A DNA stretch of 64,000 bases from Bacteroidota bacterium (lineage in GTDB: Bacteria; Bacteroidota; Bacteroidia; AKYH767-A; OLB10): assembly GCA_016721435.1 (NCBI GenBank), contig JADKIC010000005.1, forward strand, positions 48,157-112,156, in the 5' to 3' direction. Below the pieces are notes generated by a model. The model did no database searches and had not been told where the DNA came from. It was given only the letters and a program-made list of their open reading frames with translations. Below, one piece after another: positions 2,438 to 48,241 of this stretch (its first letter is position 1; each line of letters starts with the position of its first letter). The position numbers were made by a program, and so were the translations under genes.

Positions 2438-3664
2438 TACCCGTCTGAGGTTCCAAAGCAGCAGTAAATACTAAGAATAAATAAAATAATATACCATAAT
2501 TCGTCTCTCCGAAAATGCCAAATTCAGTGAGTGAGTTCACAAAAAGCGGAATGAAAATGAGTCCCACCACCATTCTGTACTTCTTATCGGCTACTTGCTT
2601 TACTGTCCATAAAAAAGCAGACAGTTGAATAAGAACAAGCAGCAAGCCTGTCATTCCCAAGCCAAGGAGGACCTGGAGAAATGTATTGTGAGTCATGGCA
2701 CCCGCATAGGCATTTATGACTCAAATTTATCCGCATAGTCAATACGCATATAACCATATCCGAACCATGCTTCACGTGGGAAGTTGTAGGTCAGCAGATC
2801 TCGCCAAAAGGGAAGTCTTCCGGTGAGTGTATAGATTTCCGTTAACTGATCCTGTTTTACAAAGAAGGACCAGCCTGCTAAGGGGATAAGTGCAATTCCA
2901 CCCAGAAAAATCAAAGTTCGTTGTAAGCGGCCTCCATTGGTTAACCCATAAACAAGTACTACAGCAAGCAATCCGATGAATGCCGATCGCGAACCGGTAA
3001 GCAGGAGCAACTGAATCAGCAAGAGTAGTGAAAGAATAACTGAAACCCGAAGACGACCATTCTTCACCAATAATGGTAGTAAGCAAGCAATGCCGATAAC
3101 AAGCAGCATCCCCAGTTCATTGGGATTAATGATAAATCCTCCCAATCGACTAACAGCACCACCATGAGTAAGACGGTAGAAGCGGTCGGGGTCGAGAAAT
3201 AGACCGATAAGAAAACCCAATCCGATAAAAAGGATAGCCGGTGCGAGCAACTTATGCAAATCAAAATAACCACCGGGATGCCGTTGACGGTAAATCGTTA
3301 AGAGGTAAATATAGAGGAATGAAAACGCAAAGCCTTCTATGTCCATCAACAGTTGCAGCAGACTCACGTCAAAGGAGCTGGTCCATAACAGCGAAGCCAT
3401 ACCGAATATTAAATAGACAACATACATCCACACGCTTACCGGCTGATGCATACGAAAGGTCTGTTTATTGTGCTCCCTCAAATGATACAGTACTGCTGCG
3501 AGCATCACCAGCGACAATCCCGCACGTAATCCCGCCTTCATAGCCTGTACCACCACAATAGAATCCGACAACATAAAATAAGAGCAAATACGCAAAATCA
3601 GCAATGCGATCAGGAAGTTCCTGTAACCTCTTGCCGGTTCACGTAATATACTTTGCGGTTTCAT
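2364..3664 (-). pseudogene. O-antigen polymerase/ligase family (Wzy-type) membrane protein, split by one frameshift
   Basis: ORFs 2714..3664 (316 aa, many TM helices) and 2364..2696 (110 aa) lie in different frames. The second carries the conserved ...AMTHNTFLQVLLGLGMTG core typical of this family. The join ...YADKFE | INAYAGAMTHN... needs a 1-nt correction near 2697-2716. Confidence 0.6.
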
Positions 3665-3681
3665 GGAGGGAGTTTGGTAAA

Positions 3682-4797
3682 TCAGGCTTTATAAATTTCC
3701 AGCATTCTGCCGGCGATAGCATTCCAGTTAAATTCTTCAGCCACCATTTCACGGGCACGTTCACCCATCTTCAGGTATTCCTTTGATAGATAAAGATCAT
3801 GAAATGTAGACAACGTCGTTTCAATCGTTTTAGAAGTACTTTTCCGGAGATGTAATCCGGCACCATACTGTTCCACTTCCTGCCCGACATTCGTAGCAGT
3901 ACTCACCATAAGGGCTATCCCCAAAGCGCCTGCTTCCAGTACTGCTGTAGGAGAACCCTCTGAACGGGAGGGATGACAAAAGAGATCCATGTTAGCAATG
4001 CGATTCAATTTATCCTTTCCATATCGCGCACCCATGAAAACAATACGATCATTCACATGTAATGACTTCGAGAGCGCTTCCAGCTTGGGACGATCAGGAC
4101 CATCACCTATCAACCATAGTTCTCCTTCACCGCCTTTCTTACAGTAGGCGGCAAAACCCTCCACCAACAAATCCAATCCTTTATAATAAATATCCATCCG
4201 CCCGCAAAAACCAAACACCGGCGATTGGCGACGTTGCATTTTATGAAATTCGAAATTCAGTTCTTTAAAATCCTGCCCATTCGGAACAACTACTTTGTTC
4301 TGTAGTCGCATCAGGTTGGCCATATTATCAAACTCACTCTGACCCAGGAACTGCACTTTCTTCGCTTCCTTCAATATCACCTTTTCATAGCGGTTAAAAT
4401 AGACCTTCTTCACCCACTTGTTCTTCTCCAAAGCCACTTTGTTAAAGGCACCATGCGGGGTGTACACAAATGGTATTTTGAGGTCTTTCAACAGACTTAC
4501 TACTTTATAGAAATCATTGATGAAAGCACCATGGATATGAAATATTGTTCCTTTCTGTTGTTTTGAAATGCGATGCATGAGTTGGGGATCCAGGTCGCGG
4601 TAAAAAGGCTGTGCACGAAAAAGAACAGTTGGAAAGGGACGGGGATAAACAGTATCCTCCACATTTTTGTAATGCCCCAGATTTCTACGTTCACCCCCTT
4701 TCTCGTACAAGCTCATCGACAAAAAGTGCACGACCCTATTCACGCCGTTCATGCGTTCAGGATTGGCTTTACCCAAAACAAGATGGATCACCTTCAT
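3682..4797 (-). CDS. Glycosyltransferase, GT-B fold (family 4-like)
   Basis: The ORF is 3682..4845, and the likely true start is MKVIHLVLGK (ATG at 4797-4795). The upstream 16 codons are read out of the 86-bp repeat. The EX7E-type region is HPSRSEGSPTAVLEAGALG. Confidence 0.75.
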   Translation of the reverse strand: MKVIHLVLGKANPERMNGVNRVVHFLSMSLYEKGGERRNLGHYKNVEDTVYPRPFPTVLFRAQPFYRDLDPQLMHRISKQQKGTIFHIHGAFINDFYKVVSLLKDLKIPFVYTPHGAFNKVALEKNKWVKKVYFNRYEKVILKEAKKVQFLGQSEFDNMANLMRLQNKVVVPNGQDFKELNFEFHKMQRRQSPVFGFCGRMDIYYKGLDLLVEGFAAYCKKGGEGELWLIGDGPDRPKLEALSKSLHVNDRIVFMGARYGKDKLNRIANMDLFCHPSRSEGSPTAVLEAGALGIALMVSTATNVGQEVEQYGAGLHLRKSTSKTIETTLSTFHDLYLSKEYLKMGERAREMVAEEFNWNAIAGRMLEIYKA

Positions 4798-4837
4798 AGA
4801 TAGCCTTTCTACGTGTAAGATTGATGTAAGGTTTCGT

Positions 4838-5250
4838 CTCGTCATTACTCATCTCGGCTTCGCCGATTTGAAACTGACGAGATTTTGGGAGTGATTCGTC
4901 AACTGACGGGATTGAAGGAGCATCTCGTCATTACTCATCTCATCTGCGATGATTTGAAACTGACGAGATTTTGGGAGTGATTCGTCAACTGACGGGATTG
5001 AAGGAGCATCTCGTCATTACTCATCTCATCTGCGATGATTTGAAACTGACGAGATTTTGGGAGTGATTCGTCAACTGACGGGATTGAAGGAGCATCTCGT
5101 CATTGCTCATCTTATCTGCGATGATTTGAAACTGACGAGATTTTGGGAGTGATTCGTCAACTGACGGGATTGAAGGAGCATCTCGTCATTGCTCATCTCA
5201 TCTGCGTTGAGCTGAATCTGACGAGATTGGGGATGAGTCGTTCGCGGGAG
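4838..5250. repeat. Tandem 86-bp repeat, about 4.8 copies, each unit a nested hairpin
   Basis: The motif CTCGTCATT recurs at 4838, 4924, 5010, 5096 and 5182, an exact 86-bp period. Each unit has an outer stem ATCTCGTCA...TGACGAGAT, an inner stem TCATC-TGC-GATGA, and a second hairpin CGTCA-AC-TGACG. The last unit is degenerate. No ORF of 60 aa or more crosses it. Confidence 0.95.
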
Positions 5251-5686
5251 GAGGCATTAAATACGCTTGTTGAGGAAGATTCAATGCGCAGGTAGGACAT
5301 TCTTTCGTCAAAATTCAATTTATCATCTATAATAAAAATATAAAGAGATTATTTGAAGGATTGTTCGTTGAGCATCGACAGCCTCGATTTTGACTGAACT
5401 CTTTAGCTACATCTTGTTCTACAAAATGTACTATACAAATGAATAATTTCTGTTTAGGCAGTTGAAATCGTATCAATTTAGACCAATTGATCTGGAACAG
5501 ATTAAACGAAGATTCAAATTCAGTTATCACATTTAAATAAAACTTAATTATTTATAGAATTTCTGCGTGTAAAGCGGCGGCTAAAAATCAAATTCCAGCA
5601 AACAATTTTGTCAATTCAGGTCAAAAATCACTTCGCCGGAGCATCCATCTCCTTCCTCAAATGATACCAATAAATAAAAATAGTGA

Positions 5687-6895
5687 TCAGTTGTGTGGCA
5701 CAAGCCCTATCAGCACACCGGCTAATCCAAACATTTTGATGATGGGATAGGCGGTGAGAATACTGAAAGCGCTGCTGACAATGAAGGAAAGAAATATCAA
5801 CCGTGTGTTTTCGAGGGTGCGGATGGCATAGCGTAAGGGATAGCCCATGAAGATGATCACATATAATCCGCAAAAACCTAAGAGCATGTACTGGTATCCG
5901 ATAAACTCGGCACCGTAAAACATGACGATGATTTGCTTACTGAAGAAGGCGATGAGAGCCAGCAAGGATAAAGTTAAAAATCCCATGCGCAAGGTGAAGC
6001 CCTTGAGGTAGTTGAACATTTGTTTCTTTCCCCCTGTGCGCAGATGACTTGCTGCACGTACCGGAATAATATTTTCCATGGCAAGAAAGAGCACATGCGT
6101 AATGCCGACAATGTTCTGTGCCATGCGTGTGGCTCCTACTGCAATTGGTCCGATGATGGCACCGGCAGCGATGATGAACAGATTGCCGCTAAACCATTGG
6201 AGGAGTGCCGTTGCCGTTAACCACTTGCTGAAATCCCAATGTTCCAGGACAGATGCTTTTATTAACCGGGTATTGAATCGCAATTGATCCAGCGACCAGA
6301 GTCCTACCAACGAGGCATAGAGAAAGAAAACCGCCGTGAGCAATAAGACGAATTGTGCATCCATGGTGCGCACAAAGTGGATGGCAAACGCGCTAAGCAA
6401 GACTCCGCCATAAGCAATGGCATCAATTAAAAATGATTTATACGGTTTCCCAATGACAAAGAAATAACGACGAAAGAAATCCTGCAATAAAAAAGAGAAT
6501 ACGGCGAGCGGGAAAGCAAGAATGATACTTTGTACTTTCCATTTATCTAAAATATAACTCATGACCACAACCGCCATGAACGCTAAAAAACCCATGAGGG
6601 CGGCGAATAAGAGTTGCTTAAAGACGAGAGTCTGCAAATAGGCCTTCTGCACCTCCGCTGTTTTTTTTCCACTTAGCGTTTGCATCGGTGAAATGATGAA
6701 GGGCTGATTGATGCTGCTTGCAATAAACACACCCAGCCAGGCGATGCTGTAAATTCCAAATCCCTCTAAACCCAGGTAACGCGCCAGGACCACACTCGAT
6801 AAAAAATTCAACCCGCTCACCAATGCCTGATCGGCATAGATAATGGCTGTTCCGCTGCGGAGGAACTGTTTCGGGCGTGTGAGACTTATCTGCAT
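5687..6895 (-). CDS. Polysaccharide/oligosaccharide flippase (Wzx-type, MOP superfamily)
   Basis: A 402-aa ORF that is hydrophobic throughout (about 12 predicted TM segments). It sits between the Wzc-type and glycosyltransferase genes. Confidence 0.65.
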   Translation of the reverse strand: MQISLTRPKQFLRSGTAIIYADQALVSGLNFLSSVVLARYLGLEGFGIYSIAWLGVFIASSINQPFIISPMQTLSGKKTAEVQKAYLQTLVFKQLLFAALMGFLAFMAVVVMSYILDKWKVQSIILAFPLAVFSFLLQDFFRRYFFVIGKPYKSFLIDAIAYGGVLLSAFAIHFVRTMDAQFVLLLTAVFFLYASLVGLWSLDQLRFNTRLIKASVLEHWDFSKWLTATALLQWFSGNLFIIAAGAIIGPIAVGATRMAQNIVGITHVLFLAMENIIPVRAASHLRTGGKKQMFNYLKGFTLRMGFLTLSLLALIAFFSKQIIVMFYGAEFIGYQYMLLGFCGLYVIIFMGYPLRYAIRTLENTRLIFLSFIVSSAFSILTAYPIIKMFGLAGVLIGLVPHN

Positions 6896-6904
6896 AAAAT
6901 CAGC

Positions 6905-9205
6905 TTACCACATGAAGAGGTTCGTCAGTTGCGCGGGGACTTTTTTTCCTTTGATGGTTTTGACTTTTGCCGGGGAAATGTATCCGGTATGATTGCGCTT
7001 TTCCTTCATGGCATTGAGGACATAGTACACTTCCTCCAAACGGTATTCTTCTTTTACCATTTCCGCATTCGCTACCAACTCGGTACGGTCGCTATCCGCT
7101 CTTACTACATATAAGTTCAGATCGCTCCACTTCACAAACGGAATCGCGTCGGTGTACTCTCCTACTTCGGGGGTATCGATGATGACAGCGTCGTATTGTG
7201 TATGTAGTTCTGCAATAATTTCTCTTGTGCGCGTTGTGGCTATCAAATGTCCGATGGGTTTATCCGATTCGCCCGCAGAAACCACATCCAGGTTCGGAAT
7301 AGCCGTTAACTGAATGGCATCCTGCAGCGAACTTTGGTGGAGATAGACTTCCTTAATACCATTGCTGTTGCGGGTATCAAACCATTCTCCCAAACGGGGA
7401 AAGTGGGTATTGAGATCGAGGAGAATGACTTTTTTATCCTGTGCGGCAAGTGTACGTGCCAGTTGTGCAGCAATAAAGGATTTGCCTTCACCTTTGCGGG
7501 TACTCGTCACCGTTATGACCAGTGATTGGTCCATCGGCTTGTTCATCAGGATTCGTGTACTCAATGCGGTGAATGCTTTGTAAGCCGGTTCATCTTTTCT
7601 AAACTGTTGCACTTGTCCGATGACCGGAATAGTAGAATCTTTACCCAGATCTTCCGGTGTATTGACAGAAGGTTTGGTATAATGTCGGAAGTAAGCAAGT
7701 ACAACGCCGAGGATGAGTCCAAGGAACAAGGCAACACCCCAGATCACATCTCTGCGTGGCGCTACAGCTTCGATCGGAACATCGGCAGATTCTAAAATGC
7801 GATTGAAGGAAACATTTACCTGTTTGGTAATGATGGCTTCGGTTCGCTTTTCAATGAGGAAATTATAGACTTTCTCAAAGAGGAAATAATTTCTATTGAG
7901 TTCCTGGAGCGTACTTTCTTTCTCCGGTAGTCCTTTGAAAGTGGCTTTTTGATCATCGATGGCGAGATATAAGTCATCCTGCTTCAGTAAAAGTTTGCGC
8001 CGGGTATTGTTAATACTCTCTACCAAATACGCTTTCTGCTGTGCAATTTCTGCTTCAGCACTTCGCACCCTGTCATTATCCGCTGTATATTTCCGCAACA
8101 GGTCATCGCGCTCCCGCATTTTACCGTTGAGGCGACTGACACTCTCTGAAAACAATTGATCTATGACGGTACCATATTCGGGACCGGAAAATTTTATTTC
8201 CTTATTCTTTCGCAAATAATCACTCATGTTCTCCAATACGGTCAGTTGCATGCCGATATCGACTTTCTGAATTTCCAGCTCTCCGAGCGTTTTATAGGTC
8301 GCTTCTGTTTCCTGAGAGATATTTACGATTTCATTTTTTATCCGGTAACTCTTAATCGCATCTCTGGCTGCTTCCAGTTCACGGCCTACGATAGCAATTT
8401 GCTGATTGATGAAATCAACAGTGTTCCCTGCCAGGTCCTGCTTATCGGCGATTCCCTGACTGATATACGTTTCAGCAATGGCATTCACAAGCAACGATGC
8501 TTTTTCCGGAACAGGATGCGTATAATATAACTTAACAATATTTACATCTTTGTCAATGGCCTTCACCAGGAATTGCGGACCCATCAATTTAGCAGACAGT
8601 GCTGAGCGGGAATACACAGTAAAACTCCAGGGCTCATTCATCTTACTGCGATGGTACTTCCATTGCTGTTCGTCTTTCTTAATAGTGACACATAATCCCT
8701 TCTCACATAATGGCTGACCGAACTGACCTTCCTTCTCAATAGAACGACCTCCCGACTCATAGCTGATTTTAAATTTCTCTCCGGCATCGTATCTGAAATC
8801 AAAGGAAAGCGATCGGAAGGAAGAGTCGGCGATGGTGAAATCAACATAGAAAGGAGCGGCATGATACACTTCCTCTTTCTTCAATTCACCCTGACGATAA
8901 TATTCAACATAGAAATCCAGGCGGTCGAGGGCTCTTTCGAAAAGGGAGCGGGACTTCAAGACCTCCACTTCTGTTTGTACTTTGGAGTTGACTTTAAATA
9001 CGTCGAAGTCGCGGTATAAATTACTGCCCGACATCCCATCATGGGCATCTTCAATGCGCAAAGTAGCCGTTGCCTGGTACTGCGCTGTGGCCATATAAAG
9101 GTAACGCGTAGCCGCAATTCCGGAGAGGAGAATGCAGATAACAATCAGATACCATCGCTTTTGCAATGGATAGAGGATAGACTGGAGTGAACCTGGGCTG
9201 CGCAT
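6905..9205 (-). CDS. Polysaccharide co-polymerase / tyrosine autokinase (Wzc/GumC-type)
   Basis: A 766-aa ORF. It has an N-terminal TM segment and chain-length-determinant region, a long coiled-coil periplasmic part and a second TM segment. The C-terminal P-loop domain carries VTSTRKGEGKSFIAAQLA (Walker A), VILLDLN (A') and AVIIDTPEVG (Walker B). Confidence 0.85.
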   Translation of the reverse strand: MRSPGSLQSILYPLQKRWYLIVICILLSGIAATRYLYMATAQYQATATLRIEDAHDGMSGSNLYRDFDVFKVNSKVQTEVEVLKSRSLFERALDRLDFYVEYYRQGELKKEEVYHAAPFYVDFTIADSSFRSLSFDFRYDAGEKFKISYESGGRSIEKEGQFGQPLCEKGLCVTIKKDEQQWKYHRSKMNEPWSFTVYSRSALSAKLMGPQFLVKAIDKDVNIVKLYYTHPVPEKASLLVNAIAETYISQGIADKQDLAGNTVDFINQQIAIVGRELEAARDAIKSYRIKNEIVNISQETEATYKTLGELEIQKVDIGMQLTVLENMSDYLRKNKEIKFSGPEYGTVIDQLFSESVSRLNGKMRERDDLLRKYTADNDRVRSAEAEIAQQKAYLVESINNTRRKLLLKQDDLYLAIDDQKATFKGLPEKESTLQELNRNYFLFEKVYNFLIEKRTEAIITKQVNVSFNRILESADVPIEAVAPRRDVIWGVALFLGLILGVVLAYFRHYTKPSVNTPEDLGKDSTIPVIGQVQQFRKDEPAYKAFTALSTRILMNKPMDQSLVITVTSTRKGEGKSFIAAQLARTLAAQDKKVILLDLNTHFPRLGEWFDTRNSNGIKEVYLHQSSLQDAIQLTAIPNLDVVSAGESDKPIGHLIATTRTREIIAELHTQYDAVIIDTPEVGEYTDAIPFVKWSDLNLYVVRADSDRTELVANAEMVKEEYRLEEVYYVLNAMKEKRNHTGYISPAKVKTIKGKKVPAQLTNLFMW

Positions 9206-9207
9206 GA

Positions 9208-9951
9208 TTAATCGTTTGATACACTATAAACCAGTGCTAATGCTGTCAGCAGACTGGCGAGAGGGATGAGTTTGGATGCAAAGCGGTCGAAGGCTTTGTT
9301 CCGGCCGGGAGGAATATAGATGACGTCGCGCGGATAGACGAGCGTTTCATTGTTGATCGCTTCGGTCAGATTGATTTTAATTGTTTCTGTGCCGCGGATG
9401 ATTTTAATTTCAGTGGTTCGTGCATAGTCCGTGAGACCATTGGCTTTTCCGAGCATGTCAACGAGGCGGGCATGGTCGGTATGGAAAACATAATTTCCCG
9501 GACGCTGTACTTCACCGAGTACGGTCACCTGATTGTTCAATAAGCGCAGATTCAGAACAGGCTTTTGAATGAACTGACTGTAGACACCGATTAGTTTCTC
9601 TTCTGCTTTTCGAAGTGTAAGGCCATCCAGATTTACCTTTCCTACCTGCGGAAGATTCACTTCCCCTTTCTCATCAATCATCAGCCATTTTCCGGATTCT
9701 TCAGGCGAATTGTAAACGGTATGGATGGAACCAACGCTCAAATCGTCATGACCCCAGATGCTCAATGAGATTTTATCACCAAAACTCAGTGTTTTCTCCA
9801 CTGCCTGAACGTTAGAATCCTGTTTCGCACCGGGCTTCGCGGCAGTCTGGTACAAGGCATAGCGGTTACAGGAACTAAATAGCAGCAGCATGATCATCCC
9901 CGAAACGAAGAGGAGGGCTGCTTTCAGAAAAAAATCGGTTTTTACTTTCAT
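9208..9951 (-). CDS. Polysaccharide export outer-membrane protein (Wza-type)
   Basis: A 247-aa ORF with a signal/lipoprotein-like N-terminus (LLFSSCNRY). It has the GDKISLSIWGHDDLS and VTVLGEVQRPG motifs of the Poly_export/SLBB architecture. It is the first gene of the locus, directly upstream of the Wzc-type gene. Confidence 0.8.
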   Translation of the reverse strand: MKVKTDFFLKAALLFVSGMIMLLLFSSCNRYALYQTAAKPGAKQDSNVQAVEKTLSFGDKISLSIWGHDDLSVGSIHTVYNSPEESGKWLMIDEKGEVNLPQVGKVNLDGLTLRKAEEKLIGVYSQFIQKPVLNLRLLNNQVTVLGEVQRPGNYVFHTDHARLVDMLGKANGLTDYARTTEIKIIRGTETIKINLTEAINNETLVYPRDVIYIPPGRNKAFDRFASKLIPLASLLTALALVYSVSND

Positions 9952-10130
9952 GGTGGTTTTAATGATTGATTTCCGCTTAACGGTACACTCTTATCACAAT
10001 TAAACTGTAATGAGCGGGAAAGGGTTTCAATTCTTGAAATAACATTACGCCTGCCAGGGAGAAGGCCTTACCAATGAGCAGGGTCAGTTTAAAAACATAT
10101 TGTACTTCTATGGTCTGGCCAATTACTCGA

Positions 10131-10143
10131 TTTTTTTTTTTTT
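10131..10143. repeat. T13 homopolymer followed by A6, in the leader/promoter region of the EPS operon
   Basis: Direct reading gives cga-T13-A6-tatttaaatttt. The tract lies about 180-190 nt upstream of the Wza-type start codon at 9951. Confidence 0.9.
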
Positions 10144-10460
10144 AAAAAATATTTAAATTTTGTGGGTTGTTAATACAAAAAAGCCCCAATTGAAGATTTC
10201 CTTTCGTGGTTTGGTAGCAGGACCACGTAAAACGCCGAATAAAGGGTTTCAGCAGGTAAAGGCTTCATTTATCATCCTACAGAACCTTTTACACAAAGCC
10301 TTCATTGCGGAAAAACGTGTACGGGATCGTTTAAGAAAAAAGAATTTCTCTTTACGCTTCTATGAAATGTTTAGTTTATTTAAGTCCTGTTGTATACACT
10401 GCCTCAGACAGATTAGAAAACCGGATAGCATTAACCAATGATCGATAATTGCATCAACAA

Positions 10461-11312
10461 TCAATGCTTCACCACCCATCTGGTATTCCGTTGCTGACCA
10501 CCGGTTTTCAGGACGCAATTATAAATACCTGCAGGCAGTGACCGGGCATCGATTTCAGCTTTATAGCGGCCGGCAATCATCTCTTGCTGAAGCACCTTTT
10601 GCACTAAAACACCCTGTACATTATACACGTTGATCTCCACTTCACCTTGTTCCTCCAATGAAAATGGCAATAATGAGATGCCGGAAGCGGGATTGGGTTG
10701 AGGGCTTGACAAATCCAGTCTGATCACGTCGGATTCTTCTCCTACACCCGTGCTTGTACTGAGGAGGATATCATCTATTTGCACAAATGAACCAACAGTT
10801 GCTAAACCCACTAAAGAAGAAATCGTCAGACTCAAAGCCGCTGTAACAGGAGTTCCTCCAATATTTGTAATGGGCACCACAGCCTGCACATAAACATTTG
10901 AATTATTTGCTGCCGTAATTGCTCCGGATCCTCCACCGGTTGTACCGGAAGCGGCATCGTAAAAGATCGCTGTTCCACTGAAGAAATCACTTGCAAGCAG
11001 ATTCGCCTTATAATAATACCTTAAACTACCGTAAGACTGACTCACAGGGAAGCCTGCTCCTCCGGCATTGCAAGTCAGCAGACCGGGAAATGGATTTCCA
11101 AATGCAGATAACACTTCCAGTTTTGCAGCTAATGACCCCCCATGTGCATCGCTTGTTTGGGTAACCGGAATAGCTGTTCCCACTACATTATTCGTGAGCC
11201 AGTTATTCGGATTACCTTGCGTCCATGTTTCCATTCCCGGATTAGGGACGGGATTTTGTGCGAGTGCAAATAGAGGAAGGCTTAAGCAGAGATTGAGTAA
11301 AATTGTTTTCAT
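10461..11312 (-). CDS. Secreted protein with a T9SS C-terminal sorting domain (Por_Secre_tail type)
   Basis: A 283-aa ORF with signal peptide MKTILLNLCLSLPLFALAQ. The C-terminal ~80 aa (...EVEINVYNVQGVLVQKVLQQEM...GIYNCVLKTGG...) match the type A T9SS C-terminal domain (CTD) pattern. Confidence 0.75.
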   Translation of the reverse strand: MKTILLNLCLSLPLFALAQNPVPNPGMETWTQGNPNNWLTNNVVGTAIPVTQTSDAHGGSLAAKLEVLSAFGNPFPGLLTCNAGGAGFPVSQSYGSLRYYYKANLLASDFFSGTAIFYDAASGTTGGGSGAITAANNSNVYVQAVVPITNIGGTPVTAALSLTISSLVGLATVGSFVQIDDILLSTSTGVGEESDVIRLDLSSPQPNPASGISLLPFSLEEQGEVEINVYNVQGVLVQKVLQQEMIAGRYKAEIDARSLPAGIYNCVLKTGGQQRNTRWVVKH

Positions 11313-11424
11313 GGTGATATGATTTAGAGTGGAATATCTTGCTAAAACTGTAATTCAAAAGTACTATTCTTAATGCATCCTCAAAACATTTTTTCATGCT
11401 ATCTCCCGTTTATTCTCCTCTCTC

Positions 11425-12062: not shown

Positions 12063-13064
12063 ATGAGAATTATTGTTCCAATGGCCGGCATGGGCAAACG
12101 CATGCGTCCTCACACACTTACCACACCGAAGCCGCTGGTACCTGTGGCCGGGAAACCGATCGTTCAGCACCTGGTAGAGGATATCATTCGCATGTGCAAT
12201 CAGAAAGTGGAAGAAATCGCCTATGTAGTCGGGCATTTCGGAGAGGAGGCAGAGAAAAATCTGATCAAAATTGCAGAAGATCTGGGCGCAAAAGGAACGA
12301 TACATTATCAGGATACTCCTCTGGGAACTGCGCATGCCATTCTTTGTGCTGAGTCGGCTCTTCGCGGTCCGGTAGTAGTAGCTTTTGCAGATACACTCTT
12401 CAGTGCTGATTTCCGCATGGATGCGGACTGCGATGGCGTTATATGGGTAAAGCAAATAGAAGATCCCCGTCAATTTGGTGTGGTGAAAACAGGTGCAGAT
12501 GAAGTCATCACTGATTTTGTTGAGAAGCCACAAGACTTCGTTTCTGACCTCGCCATCATTGGCATTTATTATCTGAAAGATGGAGAAAATTTACGCAACG
12601 AACTCCAGTATTTAATTGATAACAACATCAAGGATAAAGGAGAATATCAGTTGACCAATGCCCTCGAAAACATGAAGGCCAAAGGAAAGCGACTCAAAGC
12701 CGGAAAGGTAGATGAATGGCTCGATTGCGGAAATAAGGATGCCACCGTATTTACTAATCTGCGTGTTCTTGAAATTAAATATCCGAACAATCACATCTCC
12801 TCCACAGCCAAAGTGCACAATAGCATTGTCATTCCACCCTGCTATATCGGCGACGGTGCGGTGATAGAAGCTTCGGTTGTAGGTCCACATACCAGTATCG
12901 GCGCGCACAGTAAGATCCAGCAGAGTCTGGTCAAAAACAGTATTATCCGCGACCACAGCACTATAAAAGAAGCAGCCATCAACAATTCACTGATGGGGAG
13001 CCACGTTCACTATAAAGGCGTTCTCCGTGACTTAAGCATGGGTGACTACACCACCGAATCATAA
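12063..13064 (+). CDS. Sugar-phosphate nucleotidyltransferase with a C-terminal left-handed beta-helix-like region
   Basis: A 333-aa ORF. The N-terminal signature VPMAGMGKRMRPHTLTTPKPLVPVAGKP (GxGxR...K) is typical of NTP_transferase enzymes. Confidence 0.8.
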   Translation: MRIIVPMAGMGKRMRPHTLTTPKPLVPVAGKPIVQHLVEDIIRMCNQKVEEIAYVVGHFGEEAEKNLIKIAEDLGAKGTIHYQDTPLGTAHAILCAESALRGPVVVAFADTLFSADFRMDADCDGVIWVKQIEDPRQFGVVKTGADEVITDFVEKPQDFVSDLAIIGIYYLKDGENLRNELQYLIDNNIKDKGEYQLTNALENMKAKGKRLKAGKVDEWLDCGNKDATVFTNLRVLEIKYPNNHISSTAKVHNSIVIPPCYIGDGAVIEASVVGPHTSIGAHSKIQQSLVKNSIIRDHSTIKEAAINNSLMGSHVHYKGVLRDLSMGDYTTES

Positions 13065-24116: not shown

Positions 24117-27100
24117 ATGCTGAGAAGAAATATATTTTTAGTACTAGTCCTGATTGCCTTTGTTTTTTCTGAAGCGCAATCACAGGTTTACAATATGAAT
24201 AATTCCTCTGTGAATACTTGCGGCGGAACTTTTTATGATAGTGGCGGAAATGCGGGTAACTATGGCAACAGCCAGAATTTCACTATGACCTTTTGTTCAT
24301 CGGTGCCCGGTAATTGTGTCCGACTTTTGTTTACAAGTTTTGCACTTGAAACAAATTTTGATGAGATGACCATTTATGACGGGCCTTCAGCAGCCTCCCC
24401 ACTCATCGGGGTGTTTACCGGAAATACAAGTCCGGGATTGATTACAGCGAACAGTGGTTGTCTAACAGTAGTATTTACATCTAATGGTTTATTCAACGAG
24501 CCGGGTTGGGCCGCTACTATCTCCTGTGTAAATTGCGCTACCGGAACTTGTGCTACCAATTGCAATGGTGGACCACCTCCAGCAAACGATGCCTGCACCG
24601 GTGCACAAAATTTAGGACTTCTTCCAGTCCCGGCTGCTTGCCCGGGGGGAATAGGTGCTTTATCTGTCACGAATACCACCAATCTTTGCGCTACTGCTGC
24701 TACTCCTTATTCCTCTTTACTCGGGTGTCAGCCTGGAGGTAACATGGCTTCCCCTGCTGCTGATGTTTGGTATCGGTTTTCGATTACAGGTCCGAGTATT
24801 AATATTAGCATTTCAGGTGGTATCAATACTCCGAATGTAGGACTTTACGAGGGCGCAAGCTGTGCAGGATTAATCCCGAGAGGATGTGCTATCGGCAGCA
24901 ACGGTTCATTAAATACGACATTTGGCGGATTGGCATCAGGTACTTATTATTTACAAGTCAGCGGAGATAATCTCGCCGATCAATGTGATTTTACTTTAAC
25001 CCTGCAGAACAATTACGACTGCGCTGGTTGTGTCATACAGAGTACTTTAGTTGCAAATCCTCCTCCTGTAAACGGATCGTATCCTGCCGGACAATCCGTA
25101 ACCTTCTGTTATACTGTATCCGATTACAATCAGACCTCTGCGAATTGGTTTCATGGTGTTGTGCCTTCGTTTGGTGCCGGCTGGGACATGAGCACTTTTA
25201 CGCCTGCTCCCGTAGCTGATTGTTCAGGTGATGGTACCTGGAGTTGGTATCCCGGAAATATCACCAGCTCGGCCACCGGTAATGTAACAGGTCCCGGGTT
25301 TTACTATGAATCTCCTTTGGAAATCCATTCGCAGTTGCTGATGGTAATCCGGGAAATAATTTCGGAGACAACAATGGCACCAATAACTGCGACTGGACAT
25401 TTTGCTGGACCATCAATACACTTCCTCCGGGCGCTTGTATACAGGGTGCGAATTTGAATATCAACATCAATACCCTCGGTGATGGTGAAAGCGGTTCCTG
25501 GGGGTCGCTCGCTTGTACACAAGATCCCATCACTAATTTTTTTGCAACACTCTCCTGTTGTGAAGCTCCCACTGTAAATATTACCCAACCGGATTGCCCA
25601 AATCAAAATACCGGAAGTGCAACAGCGCAAGGGATGGGTGCAAGTCCTTGGGATTATGTCTGGACAGATGCAGGTGGTACCATACTTTTAACACAAAATA
25701 ATGTCGCGGGGTCATCTGCTCTCAACAATCTCGCCCCGGGAAATTACACGGTAAGCGTTACTGACAATACCGGTTGTACTGCTAATGCCGCCATTTCCAT
25801 CACGTCGCCCGCTGCATTTTCGGCAGTGATGAATACTACCAATCTTACCTGCAATGGAAATCATACCGGAACTGCAACAGTTGTAGTAAATGGAGGTGCA
25901 CCGGCCTACTCGTATGCCTGGTCACCTTCAGGCAGTGGAAGTAGTCCGATCAGTCTGGCAGCAGGAAATTATAACGTTACTGTTACAGATGCCAACGGAT
26001 GTACTGCAGTAGCCTCCGGGACAATCACTGAACCGGCTGTTCTGAATGCAAGCATTTCTTCAAAAACCGATGTCACCTGCAATGGCGGACAAGATGGGGC
26101 TATTACAGTTACGACTGTAGGAGGTACGCCGGCTTACGCGTATGCCTGGTCCAATGGAGCAGCAGGAAATTCCATCAGTGGATTAAGTGCAGGGGCCTAT
26201 ACGGTAACGGTTACGGATAGCCGTGGTTGTACAGGTTTTATGACAGTCGCCATTGCTCAACCCACTGCAATTGTACTTAATTTATCATCCACCGCATCCA
26301 GTTGCGGAAATGCCAACGGTTCTGCCACGGTGAACGCGCTGGGAGGAACTCCTCCTTACAGTTATGCCTGGTCTCCTTCCGGTGGCAGTGCGATGTTAGC
26401 GAACGGACTCACAGCCGGCGGATATAATGTAACGGTTACGGATAGCCGTGGATGTACTGCCATCGGAAATGTTGTAGTCACCAATTCAAGCGGTCCTACT
26501 GCCAGTATTTCGGGAAGCAGCAATGTTACCTGTTTTGGGGGCGCTGACGGAAATGCTACCGTAAATGTTTCAGGAGGAACCGCTCCCGTGGTTTACAACT
26601 GGACACCTTCCGGAGGTGCAGGAGTCACCGCGCAAAACCTGACAGCAGGAAATTATACAGTCACCGTCAGTGATGGTTCCGGATGTACTTCATCCGCATC
26701 GGTCATTATTACCGAACCGACTCAACTAACGGCCACTGTAACCGCAAACGTAGCTGCTTCCTGTAGCTATGAAAACGATGGTTCTTTAACGGCTCAGGGA
26801 AATGGTGGTATTCCCGCGTATAGCTATGACTGGAGCGGTGGCTCAGTGAATGCAACAGATAACAATCTTCTTCCCGGAACATATACCGTAACTGTGACCG
26901 ATGCAAATGGTTGCACAGCATTAACCAGTGCTACCGTTGCAGCACCTGCTTTACTTCAGGCTTCCATAAGTGCCACTACGCCTGCTGCCTGTAACGGTGG
27001 AACAGATGGAAGTGCCACTGCACAAGCTGTCGGTGGAACACCGGTATATACTTTTGTTTGGTCAAATGGAACTGCAGGCATACTTGCGTCCGGACTGGCA

Positions 27101-40202: not shown

Positions 40203-40263
40203 TCTCGTCTACTGACGAGACTTGGGGGAGGGGAGGATCGTTCTTGGGGGAGGGTAGTGAGGA
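40203..40263. repeat. Singleton related to the 86-bp repeat: hairpin TCTCGTC-TACT-GACGAGA followed by a G-rich tail
   Basis: ACTGACGAGACTTGGGGGAGGGGAGGATCGT here parallels ACTGACGAGATTTTGGGAGTGATTCGT in the 4838-5250 units. The G tracts span 40224-40254. Confidence 0.7.
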
Positions 40264-47185: not shown

Positions 47186-48241
47186 ATGCGTGCCAAAACT
47201 TTTATCATCATCCTACTCGTGATCGGGGCTTTGTTCCTTATTAAGAAGTTTTTGCTTCCATCTGAACAAACACCGGCCGGTGGTCAGGGAAGAGGTGCTC
47301 CTGTGGCGGTGGATGTGAAGATCATTACACCAGTGATTTTCGATGAAGTGGTGCAAAGTACCGGAACAATTCTCGCCAATGAAGAAGTAACCCTGAAAGC
47401 GGAAGTTGCAGGTCGAATTACAAAATTGCTCATCAAGGAGGGCGGGAAAGTAAAGAGAGGAGATTTATTAGTTAAGATTAACGATGCTGAACTTCGTGCT
47501 CAACTTTCAAAAGTAGCCTCCGGTTTAAAACTGGCGGAGCAACGATTAGAACGCAATAAGAAACTATTGACGATTGAAGGAATCAGTCGTGAAGAATACG
47601 ATGTTCTGCAAACAGAAGTGGAATCGCTTAAAGCGGAGAAAGATGTGATCCTTGCTCAAATTGATAAAACAGAAATCCGGGCACCCTTCAATGGTGTGCT
47701 TGGATTAAAACAAATTAGCGAAGGAGCCTATGTCACCAGCTTGCAGGATATTATTACTTTACAACAATTAGATCCGCTTAAACTCGAATTTAGTATTCCT
47801 GAAAATTATTTAGGAAGAATAAAAACAGGAGATACCGTAGCCTATAGCCTTAGCGGTCAAAGTTCTTCCTACACTGGAACAGTGTATGCCATTGAACCTG
47901 GTGTAAATGCCGGAAGCAGAAGTATCAACATCCGCGCCTATTGCTCCAATACCTCTTCGCAAGTGTTACCGGGAGCCTTCGCACGCGTAAAACTCCGGCT
48001 TTCTTCATCGAATTCCCTATTGGTGCCTACACAAGCTATTGTACCTGTACTTAAAGGAAAGCAACTATTTATTGTAAGATCGGGTAAAGCCGATACCGTT
48101 ACTGTAAGTACAGGAGTCAGGAATGATACAGCCATACAGATTCTTAGCGGGCTCACTGCGGGTGATACCGTTATCATCACCGGACTCCTTCAGCTTCGTC
48201 CGGGAAGCGAAATTAAATTGAGAAATAAGAGCACGCTTTAA
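47186..48241 (+). CDS. RND efflux periplasmic adaptor (membrane fusion protein)
   Basis: A 351-aa ORF with an N-terminal TM anchor, a lipoyl/hairpin region (AGRITKLLIKEGGKVKRGDLLVKINDAEL), a coiled coil and beta-barrel domains. It lies directly upstream of the RND pump gene. Confidence 0.85.
   Translation: MRAKTFIIILLVIGALFLIKKFLLPSEQTPAGGQGRGAPVAVDVKIITPVIFDEVVQSTGTILANEEVTLKAEVAGRITKLLIKEGGKVKRGDLLVKINDAELRAQLSKVASGLKLAEQRLERNKKLLTIEGISREEYDVLQTEVESLKAEKDVILAQIDKTEIRAPFNGVLGLKQISEGAYVTSLQDIITLQQLDPLKLEFSIPENYLGRIKTGDTVAYSLSGQSSSYTGTVYAIEPGVNAGSRSINIRAYCSNTSSQVLPGAFARVKLRLSSSNSLLVPTQAIVPVLKGKQLFIVRSGKADTVTVSTGVRNDTAIQILSGLTAGDTVIITGLLQLRPGSEIKLRNKSTL

Follow-up and report, generated by a model that had tools for sequence, protein, structure and literature searches.

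The stretch of DNA analysed here, a window of 64,000 nucleotides from contig JADKIC010000005.1 of a Bacteroidota bacterium (positions 48,157 to 112,156; assembly GCA_016721435.1), carries at positions 4837-5250 a tandem array of nested hairpins, which lies in an 841-bp gap free of open reading frames (ORFs) between a glycosyltransferase gene of family GT4 and a weak Wzx-like gene. With a probability of about 0.72, this array is best explained as a lineage-specific, DNA-level, non-coding palindromic repeat of the kind represented by repetitive extragenic palindromic (REP) sequences, bacterial interspersed mosaic elements (BIMEs), and BOX elements, which is selfish or neutral and has been amplified locally in head-to-tail orientation. 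The REP/BIME-like hairpin family is new, but the kind of element is familiar and no new regulatory device. In the following, plain coordinates refer to the window, C and L numbers denote contigs, G000 is the genome under study, and G012 is its sister species.

The head-to-tail hairpin array with a period of 86 bp, which an initial annotation of this DNA had described, is real: Tandem Repeats Finder reports it at 4837-5228 (period 86, 4.6 copies, 96% matches, 0 indels), and direct reading yields four whole units followed by a fifth (from 5181), which retains the hairpin but has a diverged linker and tail. Each unit consists of a 46-nt nested hairpin followed by a G-rich linker, within which lies a degenerate short hairpin. 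The common sequence of the 46-nt hairpin is TCTCGTCA-TTAC-TCA-TC-TCATC-TGC-GATGA-TT-TGA-AAC-TGACGAGA, which is organized in tiers, with 8 bp in the outer, 3 bp in the middle, and 5 bp in the inner stem, a conserved asymmetric internal loop above the outer stem, and an apical loop of 3 nt. The outer stem TCTCGTCA...TGACGAGA, referred to below as the foot, is present in all units, and units 2-5 have one more A-T pair. In unit 1, the inner stem reads TCGGC-TTC-GCCGA, and in units 2 and 3 it reads TCATC-TGC-GATGA, exactly as annotated before, with TTATC in unit 4 and GTTGA in unit 5. Folded as DNA, the array hairpins reach -9 to -12 kcal/mol, with z-scores of -3.7 to -5.0 relative to shuffled sequences.

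All units are read on the plus strand. The long hairpin of unit 1, TCTCGTCA-TTAC-TCA-TC-TCGGC-TTC-GCCGA-TT-TGA-AAC-TGACGAGA (4837-4882), has a DNA fold of -11.8 kcal/mol (z -5.0), and its GGC/GCC inner stem was found at this locus only, the same variant being present at the orthologous site of the sister species. The linker of unit 1 (4883-4922) is composed of TTTTGGGAGTGAT, the degenerate short-form hairpin TCGTCAACTGACGG, and GATTGAAGGAGCA, as judged from its resemblance to solo short forms elsewhere in the genome and from a weak 29-bp sub-period, which Tandem Repeats Finder also reports within the array. The second hairpin formerly assigned to each unit, CGTCA-AC-TGACG, is present in this linker, but folds weakly as DNA (-2.3 kcal/mol, z -1.4). 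The long and the short hairpin of the 86-bp unit are each trailed by a TTGGRGGA-type tail, and since the linker's TCGTCAACTGACGG followed by GATTGAAGGAG represents a degenerate short form together with a G-rich tail of its own, the unit can be read as a dimer of a long and a short form. Units 2-4 (4923-5180; 86 bp each, with 100%, 100%, and 98% identity) carry the family-common TCATC-TGC-GATGA inner stem, unit 4 with two substitutions. Unit 5 (5181-5245), whose right arm has diverged (GAGCTGAATC) and whose tail, TTGGGGATGAGTCGTTCGCGGGAGGAGG, is G-rich, is orthologous to a hairpin of the sister species that is split by an insertion sequence (IS) of the IS21 family. A decayed sixth copy (TTCAATGCGCAGGTAGGACATTCTTTCGTCAAAATTCAA...) follows at 5283-5350 on the same strand; it shows 75% identity over 72 nt to C1:27999-28070, i.e., it is akin to the copy at C1:28025 plus the 5' flank of that copy. 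An array of clustered regularly interspaced short palindromic repeats (CRISPR) was rejected, because the 40-nt “spacers” of units 1-4 are mutually identical.

The same hairpin is dispersed through the genome. By BLAST, iterative nhmmer searches, and a covariance model derived from 26 copies, approximately 29 long copies were located in this 4.25-Mb genome (41% GC), distributed over about 21 loci and 15 contigs, and the genome scan with a covariance model that the initial annotation had proposed returns about 33 loci. All copies are intergenic. The flanking genes are co-directional at nine of the 21 loci (hairpin in sense at 4, in antisense at 5), convergent at 6, and divergent at 6, which amounts to roughly random intergenic placement without orientation bias. 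Other short head-to-tail arrays are found at C16:65006 (91 bp) and on C37 (108 bp), C10 (80 bp), and C48 (81 bp), and head-to-tail arrays with periods of 66 and 172 bp exist in the sister species. Most copies reside in G-rich flanks (..GGRGGATCG-hairpin-CTGGGAGGAGG..), which are part of a separate tandem module, GGAACGCTTCGCTTGGRGGA; at C16:65006, the hairpin is flipped relative to its flanks.

Besides the long form, the family includes foot-only short forms, e.g., TCTCGTCA-AC-TGACGAGA, and intact solo short forms, CTCGTCAACTGACGAG followed by ATTGGRGGA, at C4:168041, C18:52451, and C2:105544. A singleton previously placed at 40203-40263 of the window proves to be a genuine short-form relative of the array hairpin (40204-40263, plus strand), consisting of TCTCGTC-TACT-GACGAGA (40204-40221) and the G-rich tail CTTGGGGGAGGGGAGGATCGTTCTTGGGGGAGGG (z -4.2); at its ortholog in the sister species, a long hairpin stands beside the same short hairpin. 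The accompanying proposal of a second dispersed family of structured repeats, distinct from the GACAGGTC REP, is likewise borne out. The element is self-similar, as its inner stem-loop, CTCGTC-NNN-GACGAG, has the sequence of the foot, and this probably gives rise to the short forms, to compound hairpin-in-hairpin forms, and to easy slippage. Compound forms, in which the apex of the first copy contains another foot palindrome, complete with an interior, and three helices are nested, are located at C12:132887-132972, C23:55261-55346, and C4:149683-149756. The feet are 2-4 nt apart in the short and 30 nt apart in the long forms, and in compound forms their spacing reaches about 70 nt.

Further repeat modules were noticed in the genome. 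The same CTCGTCA/TGACGAG foot also encloses unrelated interiors, i.e., a CCCGATAGCTATCGGG-type palindrome and a perfect 14-bp stem, CTCGTCAAGTCAAT..ATTGACTTGACGAG (C14:58640-58720 and C3:163895-163924). The separate G-rich tandem module of about 19-25 bp (GGAACGCTTCGCTTGGRGGA / GGGGGGATCGCTTCGCTGGGAGGA), which flanks most hairpin copies, forms arrays of its own at C2:84539-84648, C39:33671-34096, and C48:~640-700, and such arrays stand at orthologous sites in place of a hairpin of the sister species. The module is centred on CTTCG, which is identical to the hairpin apex (C-TTC-G) and has the same flanking sequence (GGATCG ... CTGGGAGG). At C45:12951-13190, an array with a period of about 100 bp is built from units in which CTCGTCAGCAGTAAAACCAACGGTTTAACTAAATGACGAG lies beside tRNA-like 3' fragments, GATTCCGAGGCGATTCGAAC. 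Finally, 7-bp minisatellites of the TTTAAGG, TTCAAGG, and TTTAATG types adjoin hairpin and REP modules at C14:58866-58974, C14:85193-85333, C6:148513-148599, and many other intergenic sites, and are wholly different between the sister species.

The paired substitutions in the inner stem of the array had been taken as a sign that the fold is under selection. At the level of the family this is supported: in an alignment of 41 distinct copies from both genomes (MAFFT on best-strand copies, not fitted to the model), pairing persists as more copies are added, with 90.5% of cells being standard pairs and with changes on both sides in 6 pairs of the inner helix (column 20-28: AU 18, GC 16, UA 2; column 17-31: CG 12, UA 9). 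The observed covariation was matched by none of 500 shuffles, all slid registers were far worse, and the 8-bp foot TCTCGTCA/TGACGAGA is nearly invariant across the copies. Within the array, the argument does not carry over. The sole difference between unit 1 and units 2-3 is one block, GG..T..CC versus AT..G..AT, the other 81 of the 86 positions being identical, and the last hairpin of the sister species' array is a hybrid with a GGC left arm and a GAT right arm. Together, these observations suggest an exchange of whole stem-loop variants instead of stepwise compensation in place, so that the difference within the array looks like a swap brought about by recombination, gene conversion, or hairpin-templated repair. 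Transition mismatches are symmetric (12 G·T versus 10 A·C) and thus give no sign of one strand being selected as RNA; these counts favour a DNA fold over an RNA fold.

The distribution of the family is narrow. Of 41 genomes from the same genus, family, and order, only the genome under study and its sister species match the covariance model, the latter having about 35 loci; long copies are absent from the other 39 genomes, including 18 congener species. For comparison, the glycosyltransferase gene next to the array is 95% identical in the sister species and 76% identical in the next closest congener. In a public genome collection, a strict family pattern has no match, and a loose pattern yields 10 singletons in unrelated taxa versus about 10 expected by chance, according to a rough estimate of our own. 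A metagenome collection contains neither the family pattern nor the array-specific linker (0 matches each), a viral collection has 0 matches for the family, and an Rfam scan of 4000-6500 detects no relevant family, but a single chance-level snoRNA match outside the array at E<=1. Three other congeners each have one short, relic-like hairpin that resembles a collapsed long form, e.g., TCTCGTCATT-TCTGACGAGA, with 0 matches for a reversed control pattern. Because of these single hairpins, the family may be older than the two-species clade and may have been lost elsewhere.

As most loci are orthologous between the two sister species, the comparison shows that the family expanded in their common ancestor. 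The family is still turning over, and copy number, presence, and module content vary at many orthologous sites: the array has 5 units in the window and about 2.5 in the sister species, C16:45339 has 1 copy versus 2, hairpins at L027/L028, L045, and L048 are specific to the sister species, and those at C16:81067 and C16:65006 are specific to the genome under study. Several sites that carry a hairpin in one genome are occupied, in the other, by G-rich module arrays or unrelated repeat modules. The IS21-family element of the sister species has been inserted into the right arm of the last array hairpin, with duplication of ATGAGCT. This IS21 (istA/istB, multiple TGTTGACCCCC terminal repeats) is located at C8:~307760-310415, i.e., L031/L067, and a 95%-identical copy exists in the genome under study at C33:39789-41699.

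If the hairpin is a DNA-level palindromic repeat of the REP/BIME/BOX kind, the foot would be a sequence-specific recognition site for whatever spreads or maintains the element, and the hairpin, as single-stranded DNA or as a cruciform, might be a structural requirement for this process. Arrays could grow by replication slippage or by unequal recombination between the repeated feet and linkers, stem variants could be swapped among copies by gene conversion or hairpin-templated repair, and any effect on the neighboring exopolysaccharide (EPS) genes would be incidental.

Several observations speak against this explanation. The mRNA (minus) strand of the array folds very stably (z -9.1). No mobilising enzyme was identified for the hairpin family: the genes for Y1 transposases of the REP-associated tyrosine transposase (RAYT) type (3 in the genome under study, a fourth in the sister species) are flanked by other REP families and not by the TCTCGTCA hairpin, the assembly being 95.5% complete; no TnpB/IS605 is present in 6 genomes; and no gene family recurs beside the copies. 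A replication-strand bias is not apparent either, as 10 of 20 copies lie on each side by local GC skew (a comparison of low power), and an ssDNA mechanism like that of IS200 or RAYTs consequently receives no support. Lastly, a clean pair of empty and filled sites with a target duplication was not obtained, because the whole intergenic mosaic differs wherever the two species differ; “mobile” is therefore a term that we infer from the distribution of copies.

The Y1/RAYT genes of the genome under study each stand between tandem arrays of their own REP family (GTAGGGGCGAAACCTCTG..., AACCCCAACGGGGTT..., CCCCGTAGGGGCG...), with flanking arrays at C29:8790-8920 and 9660-9930, C21:24200-24480 and 24990-25060, and C1:11480-11780 and 12400-12770. 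The copy on C1 has an in-frame TAA.

A more unusual possibility is that of a self-nesting palindromic element, which spreads independently of RAYT/IS200, either through copying that is hairpin-primed or cruciform-dependent or with the aid of a structure-specific enzyme that has escaped recognition. The identity of inner stem and foot, the three compound loci with copies in the apex of copies, the flip/flop relative to the G-rich flanks, and the solo modules with the hairpin apex C-TTC-G could all point to such an undescribed mode of spread, which is nevertheless unlikely. If true, it might explain “orphan” REP families such as the CGTC super-family.

A role of the array as an RNA element acting in cis on the EPS transcript is quite unlikely; its hairpins would then serve as processing sites, exonuclease barriers, or attenuators in the RNA between wzx and the glycosyltransferase gene and would set the ratio of the upstream export genes to the downstream glycosyltransferase/polymerase genes, tuned by copy number. 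The five stable hairpins in the fold of the minus strand, the position of the array 40 nt upstream of the likely glycosyltransferase start, and the variation in copy number between the sister species would fit this idea, and REP and BOX elements have such RNA-level effects in E. coli and S. pneumoniae. However, the same hairpin occurs in every type of intergenic context and in both orientations to genes, neither G·U-type nor A·C-type mismatches predominate, 18 congeners with a homologous glycosyltransferase lack the family, and the array is not needed to link the two gene blocks, since about 10.7 kb separates them in the sister species, where IS21 occupies the last hairpin. Moreover, 4837-5250 contains no terminator-like site and no U-tract on either strand, sigma-70-like sites are at chance level in the scan with none in the array, and the Bacteroidota -7 motif TAnnTTTG is absent from 2730-11355, hence from the gap. 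Placement in any intergenic context and in both orientations, mismatches without strand preference, and the lack of terminator or promoter features argue against the operon-specific regulatory element that the initial annotation had implied. Incidental effects of the array on a read-through transcript are possible: like REP and BOX elements, five stable hairpins could slow 3' exonucleases or be sites of processing.

Equally doubtful is a true non-autonomous transposon, i.e., a miniature inverted-repeat transposable element (MITE) or REPtron, still moved by a dedicated transposase that is either missing from the draft assemblies or unrecognisable. The confinement of the copies to two sister species with about 30-35 each, the species-specific loci, and the nested copies would be expected of such an element, and the sequence-specific ends of the hairpin together with its structural constraint fit the pattern by which HUH/Y1 transposases recognize their substrates (PMC6006769, PMC3733652). 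The ends are inverted repeats because the whole element is palindromic. The copies are flanked by conserved G-rich modules and not by direct repeats, with no visible target-site duplication and no clean empty site. No related autonomous IS with these ends was found, no pair of feet brackets a gene, no flanking protein is recurrent, and, as stated above, neither a Y1 gene flanked by the hairpin nor TnpB nor a replication-strand bias was detected. Head-to-tail arrays would also be unusual for REPs, in which they are rare (PMC3733652).

Least probable of all are double-stranded DNA binding sites, i.e., an inverted repeat TCTCGTCA-N30-TGACGAGA for a dimeric regulator or a nucleoid-associated or architectural protein, with the array as a cluster of sites at the border of the EPS locus: this would agree with an 8-bp foot that is almost invariant in 41 copies around a variable interior, with copies in divergent promoter regions as often as elsewhere, and with the single foot palindromes of three other congeners, but it leaves unexplained the compensatory changes of the inner helix, the nested hairpin-in-hairpin forms, and the variable spacing of the feet, and no regulator gene is consistently adjacent.

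Regarding the neighboring genes, the non-coding gap of about 840 bp in the initial annotation corresponds to 4846-5686 from ORF to ORF, i.e., 841 bp. It is followed on the minus strand by the GT4 glycosyltransferase gene (3682-4797; longest ORF 3682-4845) and preceded by a gene for a putative Wzx-type flippase (5687-6895, minus strand), whose match to Polysacc_synt is weak (E 1.2e-4, 22 bits, below the Pfam cut-off of 28.2). The 16-codon extension of the glycosyltransferase ORF from 4797 up to 4845 (MTRRNLTSILHVERLS, MTRRNLTS...) is an artefact read from unit 1, as had been proposed. Since the sequence MKVIHLVLGK begins at 4797 and the nucleotide homology with 11 congeners ends at 4797-4800, the true start of the gene is almost certainly the ATG at 4797 and not 4845. 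An exact-protein look-up for other strains retrieved no identical proteins for the flippase or for the glycosyltransferase with either start.

That these genes form a single operon is not certain. The wza-wzc-wzx block of the sister species is separated from the array and the glycosyltransferase block by about 10.7 kb with IS21 and two unrelated genes in between, so that the array marks a break in synteny. An indel of about 8 kb is located between wzx and the array (window 5401-5669 versus G012:C8:299738-~307700); the corresponding region of the sister species encodes a 487-aa protein without Pfam match and a 437-aa protein sorted by the type IX secretion system.

The assignment of the array to a REP-like repeat accounts for a seemingly odd gap of 840 bp in an EPS locus and comes with a corrected glycosyltransferase start (4797 instead of 4845). 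It also draws attention to hypervariable intergenic mosaics in this Bacteroidota lineage, which will break assemblies and confuse annotation. Beyond that, the family exemplifies “orphan” palindromic repeats in the Bacteroidota, with an invariant foot, a structure-constrained interior, and no adjacent transposase. Its means of spread, if found, could bear on how REP-like families propagate without RAYTs.

Among known systems, the CGTC-tagged REPs, which have been reported in Bacteroidetes among other phyla, have an unpaired CGTC at one end, 8-9-bp stems starting with AT, 4-5-nt loops, and a 3-nt CCA-type tail; head-to-head (HH) dimers predominate, and these REPs are not known to have a transposase of their own (Di Nocera et al., 2013; PMC3733652). 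Hairpins with CGTC/GACG at their base and the lack of a known transposase are common to both, whereas in the family described here CGTC is paired on both arms, the stems are nested (8 + 3 + 5 bp) with a 3-nt apical loop, a CCA tail is missing, and the arrays are head-to-tail. Membership in this super-family was rejected on account of the paired tag, the different stem/loop architecture, and the missing CCA tail.

A stable, GC-containing intergenic hairpin is shared with intrinsic terminators and Rfam motifs, but U-tract, Rfam match, and orientation bias are lacking here. The BOX elements of Streptococcus pneumoniae (boxA-boxB(n)-boxC) are modular intergenic repeats with a module of about 45 nt in variable tandem number. 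Mosaic intergenic repeats also exist in Neisseria (dRS3/Correia regions; mentioned in PMC3733652). Both systems resemble the present family in their stable predicted structure, in a copy number that varies between strains, and in possible incidental effects on expression; they differ from it in that sequence similarity is absent, the phylum is another one, and the copy number is much lower here, with a sequence-invariant palindromic foot and self-similar nesting as features of the present family.

The GTAG REPs mobilised by RAYTs, which include REP doublets forming hairpins (REPINs), are found together with their RAYTs in the genome under study itself. The array hairpin was rejected as a member of this group, since it has neither a GTAG tag nor a cognate RAYT and its arrays are head-to-tail instead of inverted dimers: the 41 copies show a paired TCTCGTCA/TGACGAGA foot with flanks (..GGATCG / CTGGGAGG..) devoid of the unpaired GTAG, no Y1/RAYT gene adjoins them, and in place of inverted HH or tail-to-tail dimers, clusters are almost exclusively head-to-tail, with one inverted pair seen in the sister species (L045, 6057+/6131-). 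Compared to REP/BIME sequences of Enterobacteria and Pseudomonas, which are simple stem-loops of 20-40 nt, the 46-nt hairpin has three nested tiers and is present in only about 30 copies. The array hairpin and these sequences are short, extragenic, imperfect palindromes in tens of copies or more (here about 29 long copies in one genome), whose base is conserved and whose stem varies but stays paired, and both form species-specific families with rapid turnover that are clustered with other short motifs into mosaic intergenic regions. As in BIME and BOX mosaics, long hairpins, short hairpins, and G-rich modules are combined in different orders and periods, and their copy number differs between sister species.

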